A DNA stretch of 64,000 bases from an uncultured Planctomycetaceae bacterium (GTDB taxonomy: Bacteria > Planctomycetota > Planctomycetia > Pirellulales > Pirellulaceae). The stretch is taken from NCBI GenBank assembly GCA_937862885.1, contig CALMEE010000121.1:66373-130372 (forward strand), given 5' to 3'. The notes beneath the pieces were generated by a model, which worked only from the letters and a program-made list of their open reading frames with translations, had not been told where the DNA came from and did not search any database. Each line of letters starts with the position of its first letter. Within the stretch, counting starts at the first letter, position 1. The translations under genes were made by a program, and so were the position numbers. Positions 14,924-49,568 of the stretch are shown one piece after another.

Positions 14924-15373
14924 CTAAGGTGCAGCGACAATTTTGAAATCGATGGATTGGTGGCCATTCGCAACGGATGTGGAAAGCGGCGTTGTTTCAA
15001 CTTTTTCATAAGCCGCCGGAAAGCGCCGTGGTGGTCGTTGCACAACCGTTCCGTCTGCATCGCGCGGTGCGGTGTAGATTTCCAGATCTTGAATGAGCAC
15101 GATGTAGTCGCCCAGCGGCACTCCAGGCCGTTGGTCTTCCCCGCGCAATACATACCTCCCTGCAGCATCGGTCATCCCTTGAGCCCGTCCTGATCTTCCT
15201 TGATTCGATTTGGAAATATAGACTATCAACAAGCCTTCGAGGGGCATGTTGTCAACCAAAACAAGTCCATCGACGCTTCCTCGGGGAAGGTCCGACTTGC
15301 ATCCCGATACTACGAGCGTTAGGCAAACGGCTGCCGCTCCGATAAATAATTGCGAAGTAAACTTCGATCTCAT
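14924..15373 (-). CDS. Putative lipoprotein, the small partner commonly found downstream of DUF1559 genes
   Basis: Signal peptide with lipobox LVVSGC. 149 aa, beta-rich. It follows the DUF1559 gene on the same strand. Confidence 0.5.
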   Translation of the reverse strand: MRSKFTSQLFIGAAAVCLTLVVSGCKSDLPRGSVDGLVLVDNMPLEGLLIVYISKSNQGRSGRAQGMTDAAGRYVLRGEDQRPGVPLGDYIVLIQDLEIYTAPRDADGTVVQRPPRRFPAAYEKVETTPLSTSVANGHQSIDFKIVAAP

Positions 15374-15460: not shown

Positions 15461-16474
15461 CTATTCAAAGGCTTCACTGTCCAGCACTTGATTGTCGTTG
15501 CGGATGCTCAAGTAGTTGAGTGTCAACTCGGAAATCTGTTCCGATATAAAACGTGTCGATCCATCACAGAGCGCAAAGTTGGCACCGCCTCCGTGGCTGC
15601 TGCCATAGGCACACATCCGGCGGTCGTTGTAGTACAGGTAGCTATTCCAATCCGTAGCCGGGGGAACCATCGAGCTACCTTGATCAAACGGTAAGGGGAT
15701 CCGAAAGTTTATGCGGGCATAGGCCGATAACGTCACGTCACCTGCCGCCAATCGTCCCCCTGAATTTGCCCACCAGCCAACCCTGGCCATCGGATTCAAA
15801 AACTGCCCCGACGGAGGAACAATGTTGGCAGCAAAGGTATCGTGATTAGGATCGTAGTGACTTCTCTCACCGAACAAAAGCGTGTTACTTAGTCCATCTC
15901 GGATGTCGCGAATTTTGACGGCTGTGCCCTGTGGCGCCGTCTGAGACCCCGGGCCAATCACATAAAACACACCGTCGTTCGTGGCAAATTGAGGATCATA
16001 AGAACGTGAACCTCCATTGCCGCCATAACTGGTTAAGCCGTACCAACGCCCCCCTCCAGTGCTGATTGGATTTTCGTCGATCGGATCAGACGGACAAAGC
16101 AAAATGGGAAGAACCGCAGCTGTCTTCGCAGTATTTCCGCCAACTGTATTGTTAATTGGATCGGCATAATCCCAGCCAGCCACCAAATTATCTTGTTCCA
16201 AATAGGGCAGCAAACGGACGAATAATGTGATGCCGCGATACCTCGGCGATGGCACGAAATAATGTTGATAAACGCCCGGCGGTAGCGCGCGGAAGCCTGA
16301 TTCGTAATTACTGGTGGCCACTGCCAACTGCCGAAGGTGATTCAAGCAATCGGTACGCCGCACAGCTTCTCGAACTGACTGCACGGCTGGCATAAGTAGA
16401 CTTGCCAAAATTCCAATAACGGCAATTACTACCAACAATTCGATCAAGGTGAAGGCGTGACGTAAGCGATACAT
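15461..16474 (-). CDS. DUF1559 domain protein with a prepilin-type N-terminal cleavage/methylation motif
   Basis: N-terminus MYRLRHAFTLIELLVVIAVIGILASLLMPAVQSVREAVRRTDCLNHLRQL is the Planctomycetota-specific pseudopilin-like DUF1559 signature. A GGAGAAG ribosome-binding site is present. Confidence 0.85.
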   Translation of the reverse strand: MYRLRHAFTLIELLVVIAVIGILASLLMPAVQSVREAVRRTDCLNHLRQLAVATSNYESGFRALPPGVYQHYFVPSPRYRGITLFVRLLPYLEQDNLVAGWDYADPINNTVGGNTAKTAAVLPILLCPSDPIDENPISTGGGRWYGLTSYGGNGGSRSYDPQFATNDGVFYVIGPGSQTAPQGTAVKIRDIRDGLSNTLLFGERSHYDPNHDTFAANIVPPSGQFLNPMARVGWWANSGGRLAAGDVTLSAYARINFRIPLPFDQGSSMVPPATDWNSYLYYNDRRMCAYGSSHGGGANFALCDGSTRFISEQISELTLNYLSIRNDNQVLDSEAFE

Positions 16475-16489: not shown

Positions 16490-16885
16490 TTATTCCTCGT
16501 TCACAACGCGAATCTGGTCGGCACGCAGGACCGGCAGATAGGGACGATCTTCAAACCGCATCACACAACCGCACACCTCAACTTTTTTTCCCAAGAAGTG
16601 AGCTTCAAAATCTTCGACTCCTTTGGCTTTCAACTCTTCCGTGGCAGCGACCGATAGCGCTACGCCTAAATTCTCTGCGTTTTCGAAATCTTCCTCAGAA
16701 TCCAGATAAACAACGCCTCGTTTCGCTAAACGGTCTTTGGCGTGCTTGACAACGAATTGCACTCGAACTGTCGAGGAGCCGATCTTGTTAATAGCTTGCG
16801 TCGGGGTCAAAATATCCGTGGGCAATTGATCTTGCCAACCGACACAGATGACGAGCAATGTCGACCAAAAAATTTGACTTAGCAT
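16490..16885 (-). CDS. Hypothetical secreted protein
   Basis: 131 aa with signal peptide MLSQIFWSTLLVICVGW. It sits between the regulator and the DUF1559 gene on the same strand and overlaps the DUF1559 ribosome-binding-site region. Confidence 0.5.
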   Translation of the reverse strand: MLSQIFWSTLLVICVGWQDQLPTDILTPTQAINKIGSSTVRVQFVVKHAKDRLAKRGVVYLDSEEDFENAENLGVALSVAATEELKAKGVEDFEAHFLGKKVEVCGCVMRFEDRPYLPVLRADQIRVVNEE

Positions 16886-16951
16886 CAGACGTTCCTTCGG
16901 GATTTGAACTTTGGATATTGTGATTCATCTAAAAACGGCGACTATGTGTGC

Positions 16952-18004
16952 TCAGCGGCAAATTACCTCACCAGTGTCTCGATTCGTATAACCTGGAATC
17001 GCTCCAATCAACCGGCGATAGGACTTGGACCGTACGACTCGCACCAGTGCACGAAACCGCTGGTCGGATTGCATACTGGGCAAACAACAAAGATCAAGCA
17101 TTTCGTTCTGCACTGGAATGAAATTCAATCCGGCTTCAGCACTGACGGCGCGCACGCAGACGCCGGCGTCGGCACCTCCGGATCGGATCAACCCGGCAAC
17201 ATCGCGATGACTAAATGCCAAAAGATCAGGTTCCGGATGTCCGTCGAGCAATGCATCCTGGCACCTTCTCGCCGCAGAGCCATTCTCTCGGCCCACCCAA
17301 CGAAGTCGCTGACGCCGTAGACTTGACGTCGACCGCACTCGGACCGTTGGGGCAATAGCAACACCGAGCTGCCAGCCAGTGAGTCGAATCATCGAAAATT
17401 CGCTCCCCAGCGTCTGACGGGCGATCCTTTGGTTATCATCAGGTGATTGTTCGTTCGACCAATGCACTCCAGCCACATGGACGGTCCCCGATTTGAGCAT
17501 TTCAAGAGCATCACGGCTCGACCGATGGATGGCAATCAATCGCTTACCCGTCATCGCGGCATACAATGATGCAAGCAGCCCTATCGATGGGTCACACGTC
17601 GCCAGCACCAGGGTCTCTTCGTCGGAAACTGACTCGCCAAAATCGTCAGGCAATAACGAGAGCATGGGACGTGTATCGGCTGGGAACTTGAGGACAACAT
17701 CTCCAAATCGCGCCTTCCAATGACTTGTCTGTTCAGCGTTTCCCGTATAAGCCCAGCGAATCGATTCTTTACCTTCAGGTGAATTGAATAAGGCCTCTAC
17801 TGAGGTATCGAGCACCTTAGCAATGGCTAAGGCAATCGTGACGGAGGGAATCATCTGGCCGGTTTCGATAGCCGTGATACAGGTGCGCGAGACGCCTGCC
17901 TGCGCCGCAAGCTGAGCCTGTGTCAACCGTTTGCGCTGACGAAGTAATTTGATGGCATGTGGCGACGATTGTGTCATGATCGTGGCATTATATGCCACGA
18001 TCAT
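16952..18004 (-). CDS. XRE-family HTH transcriptional regulator with a C-terminal periplasmic-binding-protein-like (PBP type II) domain
   Basis: HTH_3 motif LRQRKRLTQAQLAAQAGVSRTCITAIETGQ followed by a ~270-aa PBP-like domain. An alternative start at MTQSS (17977) is possible. The start codon lies inside a 37-bp palindrome. Confidence 0.7.
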   Translation of the reverse strand: MIVAYNATIMTQSSPHAIKLLRQRKRLTQAQLAAQAGVSRTCITAIETGQMIPSVTIALAIAKVLDTSVEALFNSPEGKESIRWAYTGNAEQTSHWKARFGDVVLKFPADTRPMLSLLPDDFGESVSDEETLVLATCDPSIGLLASLYAAMTGKRLIAIHRSSRDALEMLKSGTVHVAGVHWSNEQSPDDNQRIARQTLGSEFSMIRLTGWQLGVAIAPTVRVRSTSSLRRQRLRWVGRENGSAARRCQDALLDGHPEPDLLAFSHRDVAGLIRSGGADAGVCVRAVSAEAGLNFIPVQNEMLDLCCLPSMQSDQRFRALVRVVRSKSYRRLIGAIPGYTNRDTGEVICR

Positions 18005-18008
18005 GACA
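17972..18008. promoter_or_regulatory. 37-bp perfect inverted repeat (17-bp arms, 3-bp spacer) overlapping the regulator's start codon; candidate operator
   Basis: TGTCATGATCGTGGCAT-TAT-ATGCCACGATCATGACA read directly from the sequence. A half-site-like TGTCATGA recurs at about 18073. Confidence 0.5.
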
Positions 18009-18181
18009 CTCGCAAGGAGTGGTGGGAGTCGGGATCAGACGAACTTAAACCACAGCAGCAGGCATTTAAGTTTGTCATGAGTCTGTGTGGTGACGTGAGA
18101 ATATGGACGAAACACGATCGTTGAAATATCTCTACAATCAATTCGCGATAAAGCGTTGGTGTACCCGGCTCCACCTGGAAC

Positions 18182-20377
18182 TTACGCGATTCTTCGGCGA
18201 AACATGGCCAGTCCCAACCCTAACACCATAACTAGGCCAGCCGATGAAGGCTCGGGGATGGCTGAAAGTGTAAACTGTAATTGGTTGCCGTTGAAAGCAA
18301 ACGTTCCGATAAAGCCCCCGCCATTGGTATACCCAAAGTCGGTGTCGGCGAAGTTGGTTGAACCAAAGTTGACCAAGTCATACGTTTGTCCAACTTGCCA
18401 ATCGTTGTCGACGAAGGTGAAATTCCAGGGGCCGAGCCCTGACTTATTCCATTCCCCCGTGATTGTGATCAGATCCGAATCAAGGGCACCCGTGCCGAGA
18501 TCAAACAAGATCGATGCCCCACTGACCCAGGTCAAGGCACCATCGAGGGTCAGGTGACCAGGCGACAGGCCTGGGGTGAGCAATGAGCCCATGCCCAACG
18601 TCAAATCGCCGATGATTGTGCCGTCGCCGCTGAGTGTGCCTCCACTGATCAGATTAGAGGTTCCCGAAAGTTCGAGTACCGCACCGTCGGTAATTTGCAA
18701 TAAACCGGCGATTTGATCGTAATTTCCGCTGACAGTCAACAGTGTCCCCGCGCCATCCAATCGCAATGTGCCATCGTGAACATTCAAACCAGCAGCCGTC
18801 GTCAACTGCCGTCCGCCGCTTTGCACCAACTCACCATTGATGGTGCCCAGGGTTAGGTCGATTGATTTGCCGCGAATGCTTAGATTGCTATTCGCACCGT
18901 GAAGTTGCACCGATGCACCCGTTCCGATCGTGTGGATATCAACTGGAGCGGTCGTGAAGGTCATGTTGGCACCGCCGCCGCTGTCGATCACTTGCCAATT
19001 CCCGCCCGCGATTTCTCCGGCAGCCGTGAAATTTGTAAAGATCGCATTGGTGGCTCCGCTGAACGTACTATTGACCGCTGCAAAGGTGCCTTGGTTTTCG
19101 TTGGTGGAGGCGAGAAAGTTCATCGTACCGCCCTCGGCCCGCATCACACCGTGATTGACCAGCCCCAAACTGCCGGCACGGACAGTCATGGTGCCGGAGT
19201 CCGCGATGATCGTTCCAAAATTCTCCAGTCCTGCCGTCAAATTAAGCAATAGACCCTGACCACGAATGGTGTGATCGGACCCATGAGTGATCATGGGGTT
19301 ATTCGTGCCATCAACGATGTTTCCGGTTGCCGAGTTCGTACCAAGGATCAGGACACCGTTTCCGTCGAGCGTCTGCGATTCGGTAAATCGTAGTCGGGTA
19401 GCCGAACCGGTTGAATTCAACGTCATTGTGCCGTCATTGGTCAATCCACCCTTGAGAGCGAGGACAGAATTATTGGTAATTGTCAGCGGACCGTCCACCG
19501 TAACTCCTTCGAAGGTAGTCGTTCCACTCGTCACAAAATATTGCCCTGTCCCTTGAGCTGTCAGAGTTCCGCCAATCATCGTCACTGCGCCACCTGTGCC
19601 GGAAGTTCCGCTAAGGAATTTGAGCTGCGAGCCGTCGAGCACCTCGATAATACCATTGTTCGTAAAGACACCACGATTGAGTTCAATTCCGCCAGTCCCA
19701 GTCGCTCGCAGTGTCCCATTATTAATGAACACATCTGGCCGAAGATCGAGCACGCCAGTTTGATCGCCAATGATCAAACCGTCGTTTGTCATGTCGCCAA
19801 CACCATTTAGAATAAGGCCTTGCCCTCGAATGGTGTGATTCGCACCGTGTGTGATCATCGAACCCGTTGTTGCTAGGATGCGGTCGCCAGTTGGTGAGTT
19901 GGCCCCCAATCGAATGGTCCCGTTCCCTTGTATTGTTTGAGTGCCGTTGAAACGCAGGATCGTGTCAGATCCCGTGCCGCTTAGCTCGATCAGCCCGTGG
20001 TTCGTCAAGCCTTGCAAACCCGGTCCACCGCCAAGAATGTTCAGGGTTCGGTTGTTTTCAATCACCAATGCATCGTCGCTGTCTATCGTCAATCCGTCGA
20101 TCGTGGGGTTCATGTTCAATGTGACGACTGATGGGGACAGGTTACCGCCATCGATTGATACGAGATAGGTGAACGAGGAGGAGTTATTGGGTACATTGGT
20201 CGAACTCCAATTGTGCGGATTACCGCCTGTCGGATTCCAAGTATTATCGCCACCCAACCAAGTCGCGGTTACTTGGACGGGTTGCCCATATACGACACTA
20301 GATACGTTACTAAACAGGCCGAATTGGCAAAGAACCAATAACAAGGTCAAACTTTTAATCAATGTCGCAAATTTCAT
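18182..20377 (-). CDS. PEP-CTERM-anchored secreted repeat protein (autotransporter-like beta-strand repeats)
   Basis: Start at MKFATLIKSLTLLLVLCQFGL (signal peptide) with a GGAGAT ribosome-binding site. The C-terminus IPEPSSAGLVMVLGLGLAMFRRRIA is a PEP-CTERM sorting signal. Internal repeats THGxxHTIRGQGLxLN occur twice or more, and the protein is Gly/Thr/Asn-rich. Confidence 0.75.
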   Translation of the reverse strand: MKFATLIKSLTLLLVLCQFGLFSNVSSVVYGQPVQVTATWLGGDNTWNPTGGNPHNWSSTNVPNNSSSFTYLVSIDGGNLSPSVVTLNMNPTIDGLTIDSDDALVIENNRTLNILGGGPGLQGLTNHGLIELSGTGSDTILRFNGTQTIQGNGTIRLGANSPTGDRILATTGSMITHGANHTIRGQGLILNGVGDMTNDGLIIGDQTGVLDLRPDVFINNGTLRATGTGGIELNRGVFTNNGIIEVLDGSQLKFLSGTSGTGGAVTMIGGTLTAQGTGQYFVTSGTTTFEGVTVDGPLTITNNSVLALKGGLTNDGTMTLNSTGSATRLRFTESQTLDGNGVLILGTNSATGNIVDGTNNPMITHGSDHTIRGQGLLLNLTAGLENFGTIIADSGTMTVRAGSLGLVNHGVMRAEGGTMNFLASTNENQGTFAAVNSTFSGATNAIFTNFTAAGEIAGGNWQVIDSGGGANMTFTTAPVDIHTIGTGASVQLHGANSNLSIRGKSIDLTLGTINGELVQSGGRQLTTAAGLNVHDGTLRLDGAGTLLTVSGNYDQIAGLLQITDGAVLELSGTSNLISGGTLSGDGTIIGDLTLGMGSLLTPGLSPGHLTLDGALTWVSGASILFDLGTGALDSDLITITGEWNKSGLGPWNFTFVDNDWQVGQTYDLVNFGSTNFADTDFGYTNGGGFIGTFAFNGNQLQFTLSAIPEPSSAGLVMVLGLGLAMFRRRIA

Positions 20378-20586: not shown

Positions 20587-21132
20587 ATGACCCCTAACCA
20601 GTCGCGACGACGCCTTGATGAATTGTTGCCTTTGGTATACGACCAAATGCGAGCATACGCTTCTCGCGCGTTGGAAACGGAAAGAGCCAATCTCTCGGTC
20701 CAAACTACGGATTTAGTGCATGAAGTCTATCTGCGACTGAGCCAGTTACGGGAAATCGATTGGGAAAACGAACAAGAGATTTTGCGCACGGCGGTAGCCG
20801 TGATGCGGCGTGTGTTGGTGGATCGTGGACGTCATCGACGCCGGCAAAAACGTCAGCCGACGGGAGTTCGCGTACAACTCGACGGTTTGGGTGATGGTAA
20901 ATCTGACAGCGACTCAGGCGTCGATGTGCTGGATTTGCACGAAGCCTTGGAGCGACTGGCCGCGTTTGACGAACGGAAAGCGGAAATTGTCTCGCTGCGG
21001 TGTTTTGGAGGACTGACGGTCGAGCAAGTCTCCGAGGCACTCTGCGTGTCGACCACGACAGTCAAACGAGAGTGGGCCGTGGCCCGGGCTTGGTTATTTC
21101 GCGAACTAAAACATGAGCCAACCGTCGAGTGA
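20587..21132 (+). CDS. ECF-type RNA polymerase sigma factor
   Basis: Region 2 LVHEVYLRL...DWENEQEILRTAVAVMRRVLVDRGR and region 4 HTH LTVEQVSEALCVSTTTVKREWAVARAWL. Its 3' end overlaps the kinase gene by 20 nt. Confidence 0.8.
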   Translation: MTPNQSRRRLDELLPLVYDQMRAYASRALETERANLSVQTTDLVHEVYLRLSQLREIDWENEQEILRTAVAVMRRVLVDRGRHRRRQKRQPTGVRVQLDGLGDGKSDSDSGVDVLDLHEALERLAAFDERKAEIVSLRCFGGLTVEQVSEALCVSTTTVKREWAVARAWLFRELKHEPTVE

Positions 21133-24100
21133 ACATTCTAATTGGCAGCGAGTCGAAGAGACGTTTTTGAGGCTCCTTGACTTCCCTCCAGAATCGCGTC
21201 GCGAGAAGCTGAACGAACTATGTGGCGACGACTCTCTCTTGGCGCACGAAATCTCTTCGCTGCTCGATGCCTACGATGCCTCCGATGGATTTCTCGAACA
21301 GAGTTCGTTGGGAATCGAATCACTCGTCGACGAATTACTGACCGAATGGCAAATTCCGGCTCAAGGTTTGGAAACCAAGCGTGGACAATCAACTTCCGAC
21401 CTTCAGATCGAAACGGACGTCAAGGCGTCGAACCTTGACATCAATCTGCGACTTGGAGACCACACCCGACAACTGCCTGATTTGGCCGATTTGCAACGGC
21501 TCATCAGTTTGGTGCGCGCTGATTATCGGTTGGACCAACTAATCGGACGCGGGGGCAGCGGGCTTGTCGTGCGGGGCTACGACCAGCGATTGCAACGCAC
21601 GGTGGCGATCAAGTTCCTCAACCCAGACCTAACCAAAGGCAAATTTGCGAACTGGCTCGAAAGCGAGGGACGAGCCGCCGCCGGATTGACGCACGATCAT
21701 ATAGTGCCGATCTACGAAGTGTCGCCGCCCGAATCACCGCTGTCGTTTCTGGTGATGAAGTGGATCGATGGCCCGACGCTCCGCGATTGGGTCAACGAGC
21801 ACGGCCCTCTCGAACACCGCCAAGCCGCAGAATTAACTCGCCAATTGGCCGAAGCGGTGGAACACGCTCACCGTTGTCAAACGGTGCATGGCGATATCAA
21901 ACCGATCAACGTATTGTTGCAAGTTCGAGAAGACTCAAGCACAAAACCACTTTGGCGGTCGATGCTAACCGATTTCGGTTTGGCCAGGAGGATCGACAGA
22001 CAATCCACCCCAATGGCCGGATTTGTCGGCACACCGGCTTATGCCAGTCCTGAACAACTCTTGAATATGGAACCTCCATCGGTCGCCAGCGACGTGTACA
22101 GTTTGGGAGCCACGCTGTACGAGCTTCTGTGCGGCGCACCGCCCTATCGCGGATCCCCCCAAGCGGTCATTCAACAGATGATCGACCACGACCCGGTTTT
22201 GCTTCGTTCGCTCGAGCGGACAATTCCCGCCGATCTGGAGAGTATTTGCTTCAAGGCCCTGTCGCGATCCCCCAGTCAACGTTATCGAACAGCGGGAGAT
22301 TTTGCCGCTGATTTGCAGCGGTTCCTCGACGGGCATCCGGTGGAGGCTCGGACGGTGGGCCCAATCCGCCGGTTTTGGATGGCCGTGCGCCGCCGCCCGT
22401 TGGTCAGCGGATTAATGGCCACCATTGCGGTTGTCATGCTCGTGGGCATCATCGCAAATTCGATCCAAGCCCGCATTGCACGCCATCAGCGGGACATCGC
22501 TGTGGAAGCTCGCCAAGCGGAATCCGAGCAGCGGCAAAAGGCCGAGCAGAACGAACAAGAAGCGATTCGAATGGCTGAGTTGGAAACCGAGGCCCGCCAG
22601 ATCGCCGAGCAAAGAACTGAGGAAACTCGCACGGTCCTCGAATTCGTCGAACAACATATCATCGCCGCTGCCCGTCCCACCAATCAAGAAGGTGGCTTGG
22701 GAAACCAAGTAACTTTGCGAGAGGCTATCGAATCGGCGGAGCATTTTTTTGAAACGGGTTTCTCCGATCTGCCGATCGTGGAGGCCCGTTTACGCATGAC
22801 GTTGGGCACCTCGTTTTTGTATTTGGGGCAGTTAGAAAAAGCGAAAAAGCACCACGAACTGGCGCACCAGATTTTTACCGATCAACTCGGAGCGGAGCAT
22901 GCAACGACGTTATTGGCAGAAAACTATTTGACCAACTGTTATTTTGCTCTGGGAGAATATGGCCGAGCCCGAGAGATGTACGCCGCCACGCTCGCAAAAC
23001 GTGAGCGAGTACTTGGTGCAACCCACAAACAGACGCTCGAAAGTCGCAACAACTTGGCCAACTGCTATTTTCATTTGGGACAAATTGAACAGGCTGTCGC
23101 CCTGAACGAGAAGACGCTGCAATTGCGGCGCGAGAGTTTAGGCCCCGACCATCCGGATACGCTCGAATCGGAAGGCAACTTGGCACTTGATTATGTCGAA
23201 TTGGGGCGTGCCGACGAAGCGTTTGAATTGATGTCGCGAGTCAGCGAGACGCTGCGCGAGCAACTGGGTCCAGAACACCCGAAAGTGTTGATGTCCCAAA
23301 GAAATGTGGCGTTTATCAACATCAGGCGAGGACAATTGGAGGAAGCACTCAAGCAGTATTTGGAACTTCACGAACTCGAAAAGCAGCACCTGGATGCCGA
23401 TCATCCAGACGCGTTGCAAACGATCGATCACATCGGAGTGATTTATGGCTTCTTGCGACGATTCGATGAAGCACTACCGTGGGCTGATCTGGCATTTCAG
23501 AAAAAACGATCCAAGCTCGGCGCACAACATGCCGAAACTCTTCGCGCGATGATGAACTTGGCGGGAACCTATTTACAATCCGAAAAATTTGAAGAGGCGT
23601 TTTCGATCTATCAGGAACTACGAACGCTGTACGCCGATCACCCGGATCTCGGACCGGATCCGCCGACCGGGGTGTTGTACGGAGCGGCAACGGCTGGCTT
23701 GCGCGTGGGAAACGGCTCAGAAGCCATCAAGTTGATTGATGAGTGTTTAGACCGGGCTAAAAGCGACCCCGAATATTTGCGAGTTGCCCCTGATTTTATC
23801 AATCTGCGGGTGCAACATTTCAGTGGTCAAGGCGATCTGGACGAATGCAAAAACTCGGCCGAAATTTTCGAGTCCCTGGGGCTCTCGTCGATTGAACATC
23901 TGTTGATCGCGGCGCGGTTAAGGGTCGTAGTAGCTGGATTGTCGCAGTTTGACGATCTATCGGCAGAACCCCCACCGGATTTAGACTCGCGGATACTCAC
24001 CGACACCAACGCCGATCTAGCCATTACCCACATACGCGCCGCCATCGAACGAGGACTTTCCAATCCGCAACAACTACTTCAAGACCCGATCCTCAAAGCG

Positions 24101-24148
24101 ATCGCACAGCATCCTGACCTCATCGCGCTCATTGGCAACGATGACTAA
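21113..24148 (+). CDS. Ser/Thr protein kinase with an N-terminal sigma-associated region, one TM helix, a coiled coil and C-terminal TPR repeats
   Basis: Kinase subdomains LIGRGGSGLVVRGYD...VAIKFL (Lys), HRCQTVHGDIKPINVLL, DFGLAR and GTPAYASPEQ. TM helix LVSGLMATIAVVMLVGIIANSI. Multiple TPR-like units (NLANCYFHLGQ, LALDYVELGR and others). Confidence 0.85.
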   Translation: MSQPSSEHSNWQRVEETFLRLLDFPPESRREKLNELCGDDSLLAHEISSLLDAYDASDGFLEQSSLGIESLVDELLTEWQIPAQGLETKRGQSTSDLQIETDVKASNLDINLRLGDHTRQLPDLADLQRLISLVRADYRLDQLIGRGGSGLVVRGYDQRLQRTVAIKFLNPDLTKGKFANWLESEGRAAAGLTHDHIVPIYEVSPPESPLSFLVMKWIDGPTLRDWVNEHGPLEHRQAAELTRQLAEAVEHAHRCQTVHGDIKPINVLLQVREDSSTKPLWRSMLTDFGLARRIDRQSTPMAGFVGTPAYASPEQLLNMEPPSVASDVYSLGATLYELLCGAPPYRGSPQAVIQQMIDHDPVLLRSLERTIPADLESICFKALSRSPSQRYRTAGDFAADLQRFLDGHPVEARTVGPIRRFWMAVRRRPLVSGLMATIAVVMLVGIIANSIQARIARHQRDIAVEARQAESEQRQKAEQNEQEAIRMAELETEARQIAEQRTEETRTVLEFVEQHIIAAARPTNQEGGLGNQVTLREAIESAEHFFETGFSDLPIVEARLRMTLGTSFLYLGQLEKAKKHHELAHQIFTDQLGAEHATTLLAENYLTNCYFALGEYGRAREMYAATLAKRERVLGATHKQTLESRNNLANCYFHLGQIEQAVALNEKTLQLRRESLGPDHPDTLESEGNLALDYVELGRADEAFELMSRVSETLREQLGPEHPKVLMSQRNVAFINIRRGQLEEALKQYLELHELEKQHLDADHPDALQTIDHIGVIYGFLRRFDEALPWADLAFQKKRSKLGAQHAETLRAMMNLAGTYLQSEKFEEAFSIYQELRTLYADHPDLGPDPPTGVLYGAATAGLRVGNGSEAIKLIDECLDRAKSDPEYLRVAPDFINLRVQHFSGQGDLDECKNSAEIFESLGLSSIEHLLIAARLRVVVAGLSQFDDLSAEPPPDLDSRILTDTNADLAITHIRAAIERGLSNPQQLLQDPILKAIAQHPDLIALIGNDD

Positions 24149-49351: not shown

Positions 49352-49568
49352 CTTGTTTGCGCGACACCTATCGATTTCACCATATTCAAACTCAAAGAAG
49401 TATATCAAGGGCGCGGTAACTCCCCCAGTCTGGCGCCGGTCGCGAAATTACGAGTTCATATTGACGATATGCTCCAAACGGACTAAACTAAAAAGTGTAG
49501 CACGTGCTAAACATTTTACCCAGCCTGAATGGCTTTGGTTGTCCAGTTCAACGACTAAGGGGATTACG

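Follow-up and report, generated by a model that had tools for sequence, protein, structure and literature searches.

A perfect 39-bp palindrome lies over the start of a minus-strand regulator gene in a 64-kb stretch (64,000 nucleotides; hereafter, the window) of genomic DNA from an uncultured Planctomycetaceae bacterium. The gene encodes a one-component regulator in which an XRE-type helix-turn-helix (HTH) domain is joined to a PBP-like sensor domain. Our analysis suggests that the palindrome is probably the regulator's own operator, built over its core promoter, and that it heads an autorepressed operon whose expression would be set by an oxyanion. As judged from sequence comparison, the window palindrome is the extreme case of a two-box operator found family-wide.

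Anatomy of the palindrome and the predicted promoter within it

The first-pass annotation described a flawless 17+3+17 inverted repeat, TGTCATGATCGTGGCAT-TAT-ATGCCACGATCATGACA, at 17972-18008. The sequence is present as written and the symmetry is perfect, but the repeat is one base longer at either end, which makes it 18+3+18 at 17971-18009. An inverted-repeat search of the window identified it as the only perfect inverted repeat with arms longer than 12 nt, the others reaching at best 12-18 nt at 86-92%. By chance, repeats with arms of at least 18 nt and a loop of at most 60 nt are expected about 6e-5 times per 64 kb at even composition. The 39-mer is the same in two independent assemblies of the source organism, a Pirellulaceae metagenome-assembled genome (L081 from ENA and L082 from Logan), and therefore an assembly artefact is excluded. 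The 17-mer arm has no further copy in the window even at 3 mismatches.

Two further observations concern repeats in the window. The second-best inverted repeat is TAAAAAGTGTAGCACGTG / CACGTGCTAAACATTTTA at 49489-49518 (18 nt, 89%), with arms that overlap around CACGTG, and the self-complementary pentamer TGNCA occurs 347 times in the whole window, compared with about 250 expected at even base composition.

The elements of the putative operator, its promoter and the regulator gene are as follows.

17971..18009, minus strand: putative complete operator, a perfect 18+3+18 palindrome made of two 16-bp boxes flanking the -10 hexamer
17993..18008, minus strand: distal box TGTCATGATCGTGGCA, filling the 17-nt spacer between -35 and -10, with zero mismatches to TGNCANGATCNTGNCA
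17972..17987, minus strand: proximal box TGCCACGATCATGACA, with zero mismatches, covering the predicted transcription start, the start codon and codon 2
18010..18015, minus strand: -35-like hexamer TTGCGA from the promoter scan (family TTGAC at -38..-34)
17987..17992, minus strand: -10 hexamer TATAAT at the dyad centre, from the promoter scan (family TAnaAT at -15..-10)
17977..17980, minus strand: predicted transcription start zone from promoter geometry, either A 17980 (7 nt past the -10) or the A of ATG 17977
18073..18080, no strand assigned: isolated half box TGTCATGA, 65 bp beyond the palindrome edge and 96-103 nt upstream of ATG 17977
16952..17977, minus strand: regulator, 341 amino acids, with an XRE HTH_3 domain (residues 9-62), a beta linker and a PBP_like PF12727 domain (residues 143-315)

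The palindrome consists of four TGNCA pentamers at 17972, 17983, 17993 and 18004 (plus-strand positions), with a spacing of 11-10-11. These form two 16-bp boxes, TGnCAnGATCnTGnCA, in each of which two pentamers stand 11 bp apart around a GATC core, a spacing that would be expected to fit one HTH dimer per box. Since the box centres are 21 bp apart, or two helical turns, the boxes lie on the same face of the DNA; two boxes with four pentamers thus imply two dimers rather than one. At a tolerance of one mismatch, the two arms are the only box matches in the window. On the minus strand, the distal box is bounded by TGTCA (18008-18004) and TGGCA (17997-17993). The first base of the proximal arm is the last T of the -10 hexamer, and its end reads ATG-ACA, that is, the start codon and codon 2.

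In the promoter scan, TTGCGA-17 nt-TATAAT was the best site of the region, matching a sigma-70-type promoter at 10/12 positions. The -10 ends 9 nt before ATG 17977, as it does in the aligned family sites, and no Shine-Dalgarno sequence was found between the two. From this geometry, we consider it somewhat more probable than the contrary that the transcript is leaderless or carries a 3-nt leader.

A related half-site had also been noted upstream of the palindrome. It exists, as the TGTCATGA element listed above, but it is a half box only, matching 8/12 of the specified positions of the 16-bp box. Possibly it is an auxiliary site, the relic of a second operator or a chance occurrence; nine homologue loci have complete auxiliary boxes, located 84-186 nt upstream.

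Both ATGs previously placed inside the palindrome, at 18004 and 17977, are there on the minus strand and in frame. The choice of 18004 as the start gives way to ATG 17977, which is favoured by the family's N-termini and by a closest relative of 341 amino acids. The annotated form of the regulator (P0001; 18004..16952) has 350 amino acids; 25 homologues aligned to it start where ATG 17977 lies, and most aligned homologues have 7-8 residues ahead of a conserved NRV..R motif. The closest relative among 1.8 billion representatives, P0121, is 56% identical, exactly 341 amino acids long and aligned from residue 2. As such, the comparison makes ATG 17977 most likely the true start. The annotated product is probably nine codons too long, its extra MIVAYNATI being the translated operator and -10 box (17978-18004). 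Similar spurious N-terminal extensions occur in the homologues P0014 (…SYHDRIM) and P0094 (…CHYNARM).

The domain assignment is well above threshold for both halves of the protein: PF01381 (HTH_3) scores 49.4 bits (cutoff 23) over residues 9-62, and PF12727 (PBP_like) scores 118.4 bits (cutoff 27) over residues 143-315. Apart from HTH_3, the HTH models that match are the XRE-type HTH_31, HTH_19 and HTH_26 only; PF12728 (HTH_17) has no match in the regulator, nor do the ModE_N winged helix and Mop/TOBE in Pfam and NCBIfam. A sequence search of the PDB matched the HTH only, the closest entries being a PbsX-family regulator and CylR2. The AlphaFold model of the regulator, with a predicted local distance difference test (pLDDT) score of 92.5, has five helices at residues 8-64. 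In the fold search, its two-lobed C-terminal domain resembles the type II PBPs PtxB (phosphite), PhnD, PstS and a putative ModA, as well as the anion-sensing LysR effector domains YeiE (sulfite), NtcB and CynR. Given the PF12727 score and this likeness of the model to oxyanion binders, a ligand-responsive switch is plausible. The modelled fold would set the ligand class, a small oxyanion, and not the identity of the ligand. Invariant residues of the PBP-like domain are R146, H167, H172, N182 and R230, numbered on the 341-amino-acid form. The window contains no paralogue of the regulator.

The two-box site in homologous loci

To examine the conservation of the site, we scanned a genome collection with the family alignment. 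The scan yielded 80 loci from Planctomycetota and Verrucomicrobiota whose regulators are 38-48% identical to that of the window. Scanning the 717 kb of these loci for TGNCANGATCNTGNCA at up to one mismatch gave 68 matches where about 0.6 were expected (0.05 per 64 kb in shuffles), an approximately 100-fold over-representation. The matches are also strongly positioned: 52 of the 68, in 48 loci, fall within -80..+30 of the regulator start, and 33 stand at exactly -10 from the start codon, the same offset as in the window.

A column profile was computed from 40 aligned sites, namely, those of 39 homologue loci and the window. It reads TTGaC at -38..-34, tGncAngATc.tG.Ca at -31..-16, TA.aAT at -15..-10 and TG.CAsGATC-ATG-.CA at -10..+5. 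The proximal box contributes the strongest columns, and the distal box has the family consensus tGncAngATcntGnCa. Profile positions 0-2, 4 and 5 served in picking the sites, a caveat that is removed by the separate, unbiased box scan. The profile also bears on the protein: 49 of 67 family N-termini begin with MS, MA, MT or MP, as expected from the ATG-NCA of the site.

Individual loci illustrate the same design. Upstream of the regulator start, L053 has ATGATCCTGTCAT-ATA-ATGACAGGATCATG and L047 has TGCCATGATGCTGCCAT-AGA-ATGGCAGCATCATGGCA, and the upstream regions of L009, L006, L031 and L071 resemble these two. Near-perfect long palindromes are likewise present in L047 (17/17), L036 (16/17) and L053 (14/17). 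The locus of the closest relative, P0121 (L083-L085), has the window's gene order, in which the regulator is followed by genes for a 138-amino-acid protein, a DUF1559 protein (337 amino acids) and a 207-amino-acid protein. Its promoter region reads TTGTGG-17-TAAAAT-GTCGCGATT-ATGACA, with the pentamers AGTCA/TGACA/TGTCG/TGACA; position and boxes are kept, with arms that are complementary at 12/16 positions only. In the Gemmatales locus L086, where the regulator is followed by an OB-fold protein and a DUF1559 protein, the two-box site CGCCACGATCCTGTCA-TACCA-TGACACGATCATGGCA lies at the regulator's ATG. Conservation of the palindrome at orthologous loci, a check named in the first-pass annotation, is thus borne out as a same-design site at the same position in homologues and orthologues.

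Proposed mechanism and competing explanations

In the mechanism that we propose, the XRE-PBP_like protein would fill both boxes on one DNA face as two dimers (a tetramer), a stoichiometry suggested by the box arrangement. The bound regulator would cover the DNA from the -35/-10 spacer through the -10 and the start site to the start codon, so that RNA polymerase would be shut out. Besides the regulator gene, the repressed transcript would most likely include the three genes downstream of it, for the OB-fold protein, the DUF1559 protein and the lipoprotein. How fully the boxes are occupied would depend on the binding of a small oxyanion, with molybdate or tungstate as the foremost candidates, to the C-terminal PBP-like domain, and the liganded form would be the repressor, a step modelled on ModE. 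The parts of this scheme differ in strength. It is highly likely that the site is recognised by the regulator encoded there, and likely that binding represses rather than activates. The co-repressor logic, in which the liganded form would repress as it does for ModE and other uptake regulators, may hold or fail with about equal probability, and the choice of molybdate or tungstate is tentative, at slightly less than even confidence. The initial proposal of an operator and autoregulation therefore gains strong comparative support, since the site tracks the family, but with two boxes, and hence two dimers in place of one.

Several points weigh against this proposal. The link between the site and its regulator derives from co-location. 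About 30 of the 80 homologue loci lack a box near the start at up to one mismatch, so that the design is common rather than universal, and the symmetry of the window palindrome is perfect even at the N positions, beyond what the family consensus needs. The consensus rules for sigma-70 promoters have had little validation in Planctomycetes, which weighs on the TTGCGA-17-TATAAT match, and the A/G at +7 to +10 past the -10 is compatible with a leaderless mRNA but is no proof of one. As for the ligand, neither modA, modB nor an obvious molybdenum gene is present in the window, and the assignment draws on sequence relatives that are 38-56% identical.

A translation-blocking mRNA hairpin had been offered as an alternative. 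In this reading, the palindrome would be transcribed, from an upstream start or by read-through from the PEP-CTERM gene, and its 18-bp stem would sequester both ATGs, blocking translation or stabilising the message. The predicted RNA stem is indeed very stable (centroid -33.5 kcal/mol, z = -6.9 versus shuffles), and the interval from the stop of the upstream PEP-CTERM gene at 18182 to the palindrome contains no obvious strong terminator. However, a near-consensus promoter lies inside the palindrome; with the predicted start in the downstream arm, the upstream arm would be absent from the main mRNA. In addition, mirrored complementarity over the 39 family sites is at the level expected from column composition (e.g., 29 observed versus 29.0), with a small excess at the pentamer N positions only (15 versus 9.9 expected and 13 versus 10.1). 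What is conserved is therefore the sequence and not compensatory pairing, as for a protein operator. Most family sites pair at 8-12/17 positions and the closest orthologue at 12/16; Rfam gave no match at E<=1 over 16800-18400, and there is no U-tract or terminator-like site at the palindrome. With a predicted promoter inside the palindrome, no covariation across the family and an orthologue paired at only 12/16 positions, we consider the hairpin very improbable.

Less improbable, though still unlikely, is that the palindrome is the operator of another DNA-binding protein, or that the regulator works there by activation or in a dual role. The cognate assignment comes by co-location only, boxes occur at the starts of other genes in relatives, and a trans-acting factor encoded elsewhere is conceivable. 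MerR-type proteins bind the -35/-10 spacer and can activate, which makes spacer binding compatible with activation. Against this, the motif follows the regulator family over two phyla at a fixed offset from the start codon, even where the neighbours differ. The spacer has the optimal 17 nt, whereas MerR-type activated promoters have over-long spacers, and the proximal box, lying across both the start site and the start codon, is placed as a repressor site would be. The least probable explanation, to which we assign hardly any weight, is a structural or recombinational element: a cruciform-prone palindrome, an inversion relic or site, or a mobile repeat. In its inversion version, a divergent gene pair would have been turned into the co-directional block, and it is true that the DUF1559 cluster is divergent in most relatives and co-directional in the window and its nearest relatives; the excess symmetry and the AT-rich centre also fit. 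However, the element is single copy in 64 kb with no adjacent recombinase or transposase, imperfect palindromes occupy the corresponding place in L083 and L086, the co-directional orthologues, and protein recognition accounts for the conservation of specific bases. A dispersed repeat of the repetitive extragenic palindromic (REP) or miniature inverted-repeat transposable element (MITE) type was rejected for the window, where the two arms are the sole matches at up to 3 mismatches. The further possibility raised at the outset, a repeated genomic element unrelated to the gene, finds no additional copy within the window, which is the scope of that statement.

Linked genes, candidate regulon and relation to known systems

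The genes around the regulator in the window are listed below.

16490..16885, minus strand: secreted 131-amino-acid OB-fold protein, first downstream gene, after a 66-nt gap
15461..16474, minus strand: DUF1559 / H-X9-DG prepilin-like protein, after a 15-nt gap
14924..15373, minus strand: 149-amino-acid lipoprotein with lipobox VSGC, last gene of the block; same-position homologues in L027, L033 and L045
20416..18182, minus strand: 744-amino-acid PEP-CTERM protein, upstream

The co-directional block of regulator, secreted protein, DUF1559 gene and lipoprotein was described correctly in the first-pass annotation, all four genes being on the minus strand. The 131-amino-acid protein is modelled by AlphaFold at pLDDT 91 as a generic OB-fold with no specific functional match in the fold search, and its family comprises 26 hits, from Planctomycetes only as far as the hits are named. 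A DUF1559 gene follows it in the window and follows its homologue in 4 of 5 other informative contexts (L083, L086, L087/L088 and L089). The exception, L090, has the homologue without DUF1559, and L091 stops at a contig edge. Between the PEP-CTERM gene and the promoter, a hairpin-like segment at 18040-18070 folds no better than shuffles (z = -1.8), and a terminator there was dropped on this value.

To identify linked genes, we searched the 80 loci with the window's downstream proteins by tblastn. A DUF1559 gene stands beside the regulator in about 38-42 of the 80; it is mostly oriented divergently and placed directly upstream, and 55-200 bp separate the two start codons. In six loci the OB-fold homologue is found between regulator and DUF1559, with the lipoprotein homologue next in three. 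Directly downstream of the regulator, modA, modB and modC are found in about 20 of the 80 loci; modA homologues pass the TIGR01256 equivalog cutoff (192, 172 and 78 bits versus 62.5), and the modB of L064 passes TIGR02141. Both DUF1559 and modA occur in at least nine loci. In L027, whose DUF1559 protein is 66% identical to that of the window, modA/B/C-type genes lie downstream of the regulator and the divergent OB-fold/DUF1559 cluster has a second two-box operator of its own. In a neighbour-joining tree of the regulators, DUF1559 and modA contexts are interleaved, and the window protein forms a long branch beside a Planctomycetaceae clade containing both.

In L002, L005, L017 and others, only about 55-70 bp separate the regulator's start codon from that of the divergent DUF1559 gene. 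In these loci, the outer TGNCA pentamer reads ATGACA on the opposite strand and could serve as the -35 of a divergent DUF1559 promoter, and one operator may therefore control both directions.

Two further contexts extend the candidate regulon. In Prosthecobacter L040 (4074) and L042 (3772), a two-box site lies exactly at the start codon of a gene for a TonB-dependent receptor of 654-655 amino acids, followed by a gene for a 156-amino-acid Oxidored_molyb-domain protein. The Prosthecobacter loci L052, L057, L062 and L064 have boxes in the corresponding region upstream of the regulator. The position of the site at the receptor start suggests that the receptor, too, is expressed from a leaderless mRNA and forms part of the same regulon. 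Moreover, L087 (4566-4970, minus strand) and L088 (2519-2923), which represent another planctomycete lineage, encode a 134-amino-acid ModE-N-like protein, divergent from an OB-fold/DUF1559/200-amino-acid cluster, which matches TIGR00637 at E = 4.6e-22 with 77.9 bits, under the 98.5 cutoff. This looks like a non-homologous regulator swap pointing to molybdenum.

Beyond the window, a broader and more speculative interpretation, which we think somewhat less likely to be right than wrong, is that XRE-PBP_like proteins are unrecognised molybdate/tungstate-responsive regulators of Planctomycetota and Verrucomicrobiota, acting through a four-pentamer TGNCA operator at leaderless promoters. Their regulon would include modABC, the TonB-dependent receptor and Oxidored_molyb genes in Verrucomicrobia, and the OB-fold, DUF1559 and lipoprotein genes in Planctomycetes. 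If true, this would provide the first functional assignment, trace-oxyanion acquisition, for a subfamily of the hugely expanded DUF1559 proteins.

The closest parallel in sensor domain is TaoR. TaoR/TupR of Desulfovibrio is the only characterised PF12727 regulator that we could document; TaoR is described as a tungstate-responsive regulator with HTH_17 and PBP_like PF12727 that controls aor and tungstate/molybdate transport (Rajeev et al. 2019, as described in PMC11980592 and PMC12327845). Like TaoR, the window regulator is a one-component protein with an HTH fused to a C-terminal PF12727 PBP-like domain, and its family is genomically linked to molybdenum/tungsten transport genes (modABC). Unlike TaoR, with its HTH_17, it has an XRE/Cro-C1 DNA-binding domain (PF01381), for which a different operator is expected, and the XRE-PBP_like proteins are distributed over Planctomycetota and Verrucomicrobiota, where their linked genes are of the DUF1559, prepilin-like and TonB-receptor kinds. 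TunR was set aside as the PF12727 regulator, the literature search having returned no paper on TunR and tungstate.

In E. coli and others, ModE represses modABC in a molybdate-dependent manner. The proposed arrangement resembles it in that transcription of uptake genes would start under a palindromic operator, with an oxyanion as co-repressor, and it is a ModE-N-like protein that replaces the XRE-PBP_like regulator beside the OB-fold/DUF1559 cluster in L087/L088. The two are not homologous, however, the window sensor having a type II PBP fold without ModE_N or Mop/TOBE. Phage-type XRE repressors also act on their own promoters, as with lambda CI at PRM/OR, the 434 repressor, CylR2, SinR and Xre/PbsX, and the lambda cI mRNA from PRM is leaderless. 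The window regulator shares with these repressors the HTH_3 domain and dyad operators for dimers, with dimer pairs on adjacent sites as proposed here, and, by prediction, a leaderless mRNA like that of lambda cI. In contrast to phage-type repressors, which are without a PBP-type small-molecule sensor, it has a PBP-like sensor; its two boxes and the -10 together make up a single perfect 39-bp dyad, whose last pentamer determines codon 2. VnfR1 and VnfR2 of Anabaena variabilis are molybdenum-dependent repressors with an N-terminal HTH, encoded beside vanadate transport and vnfH genes (PMC4284476, PMC8461463). By description, they are similar in being one-component HTH repressors beside oxyanion-transport genes, and homology to the XRE-PBP_like family is at most a lead.

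Literature searches on PF12727 regulators, on XRE with DUF1559 and Planctomycetes, and on molybdate-responsive Planctomycetes regulators returned nothing on an XRE+PF12727 family or its operator. The family is large, with 143 clusters at 50% identity at E<=1e-30 and 962 at E<=1e-10. Autoregulation from an operator placed over a promoter is textbook biology, and the palindrome itself is an ordinary operator of that kind; what merits attention is the motif, the promoter design and the DUF1559-modABC link. For a large one-component family in two phyla, as yet uncharacterised, the result is a promoter design with a cis-motif that can be searched for; to our knowledge, almost no transcription-factor/operator pairs are known in Planctomycetes or Verrucomicrobia. 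It also presents a case in which a DNA-binding site constrains a protein N-terminus, since the operator fixes codon 2 of the regulator (ATG-NCA). We know of no function for DUF1559 genes, which are present in many copies per Planctomycete genome. The motif and the linkage tie them to modABC and, in another lineage, to a ModE-like regulator, and a role in the acquisition of molybdenum/tungsten, or at least of oxyanions, is therefore testable in cultured strains. Cultured relatives with a family member are Singulisphaera acidiphila DSM 18658 (L032), Aquisphaera insulae JC669 (L063) and Paludisphaera mucosa (P0052).

Two minor observations concern more distant neighbours. In the window, an extracytoplasmic function (ECF) sigma factor gene at 20587-21132 on the plus strand overlaps by 20 nt a gene for a 1011-amino-acid Ser/Thr kinase-tetratricopeptide repeat (TPR) protein at 21113-24148 on the same strand; an ECF sigma/kinase pair lies near the regulator in L083-L085 too, in an orientation unlike the window's. 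In L086, a MOSC-domain gene (molybdenum cofactor sulfurase C-terminal) at 863-1330 lies about 2.6 kb upstream of the block, which may be coincidence.

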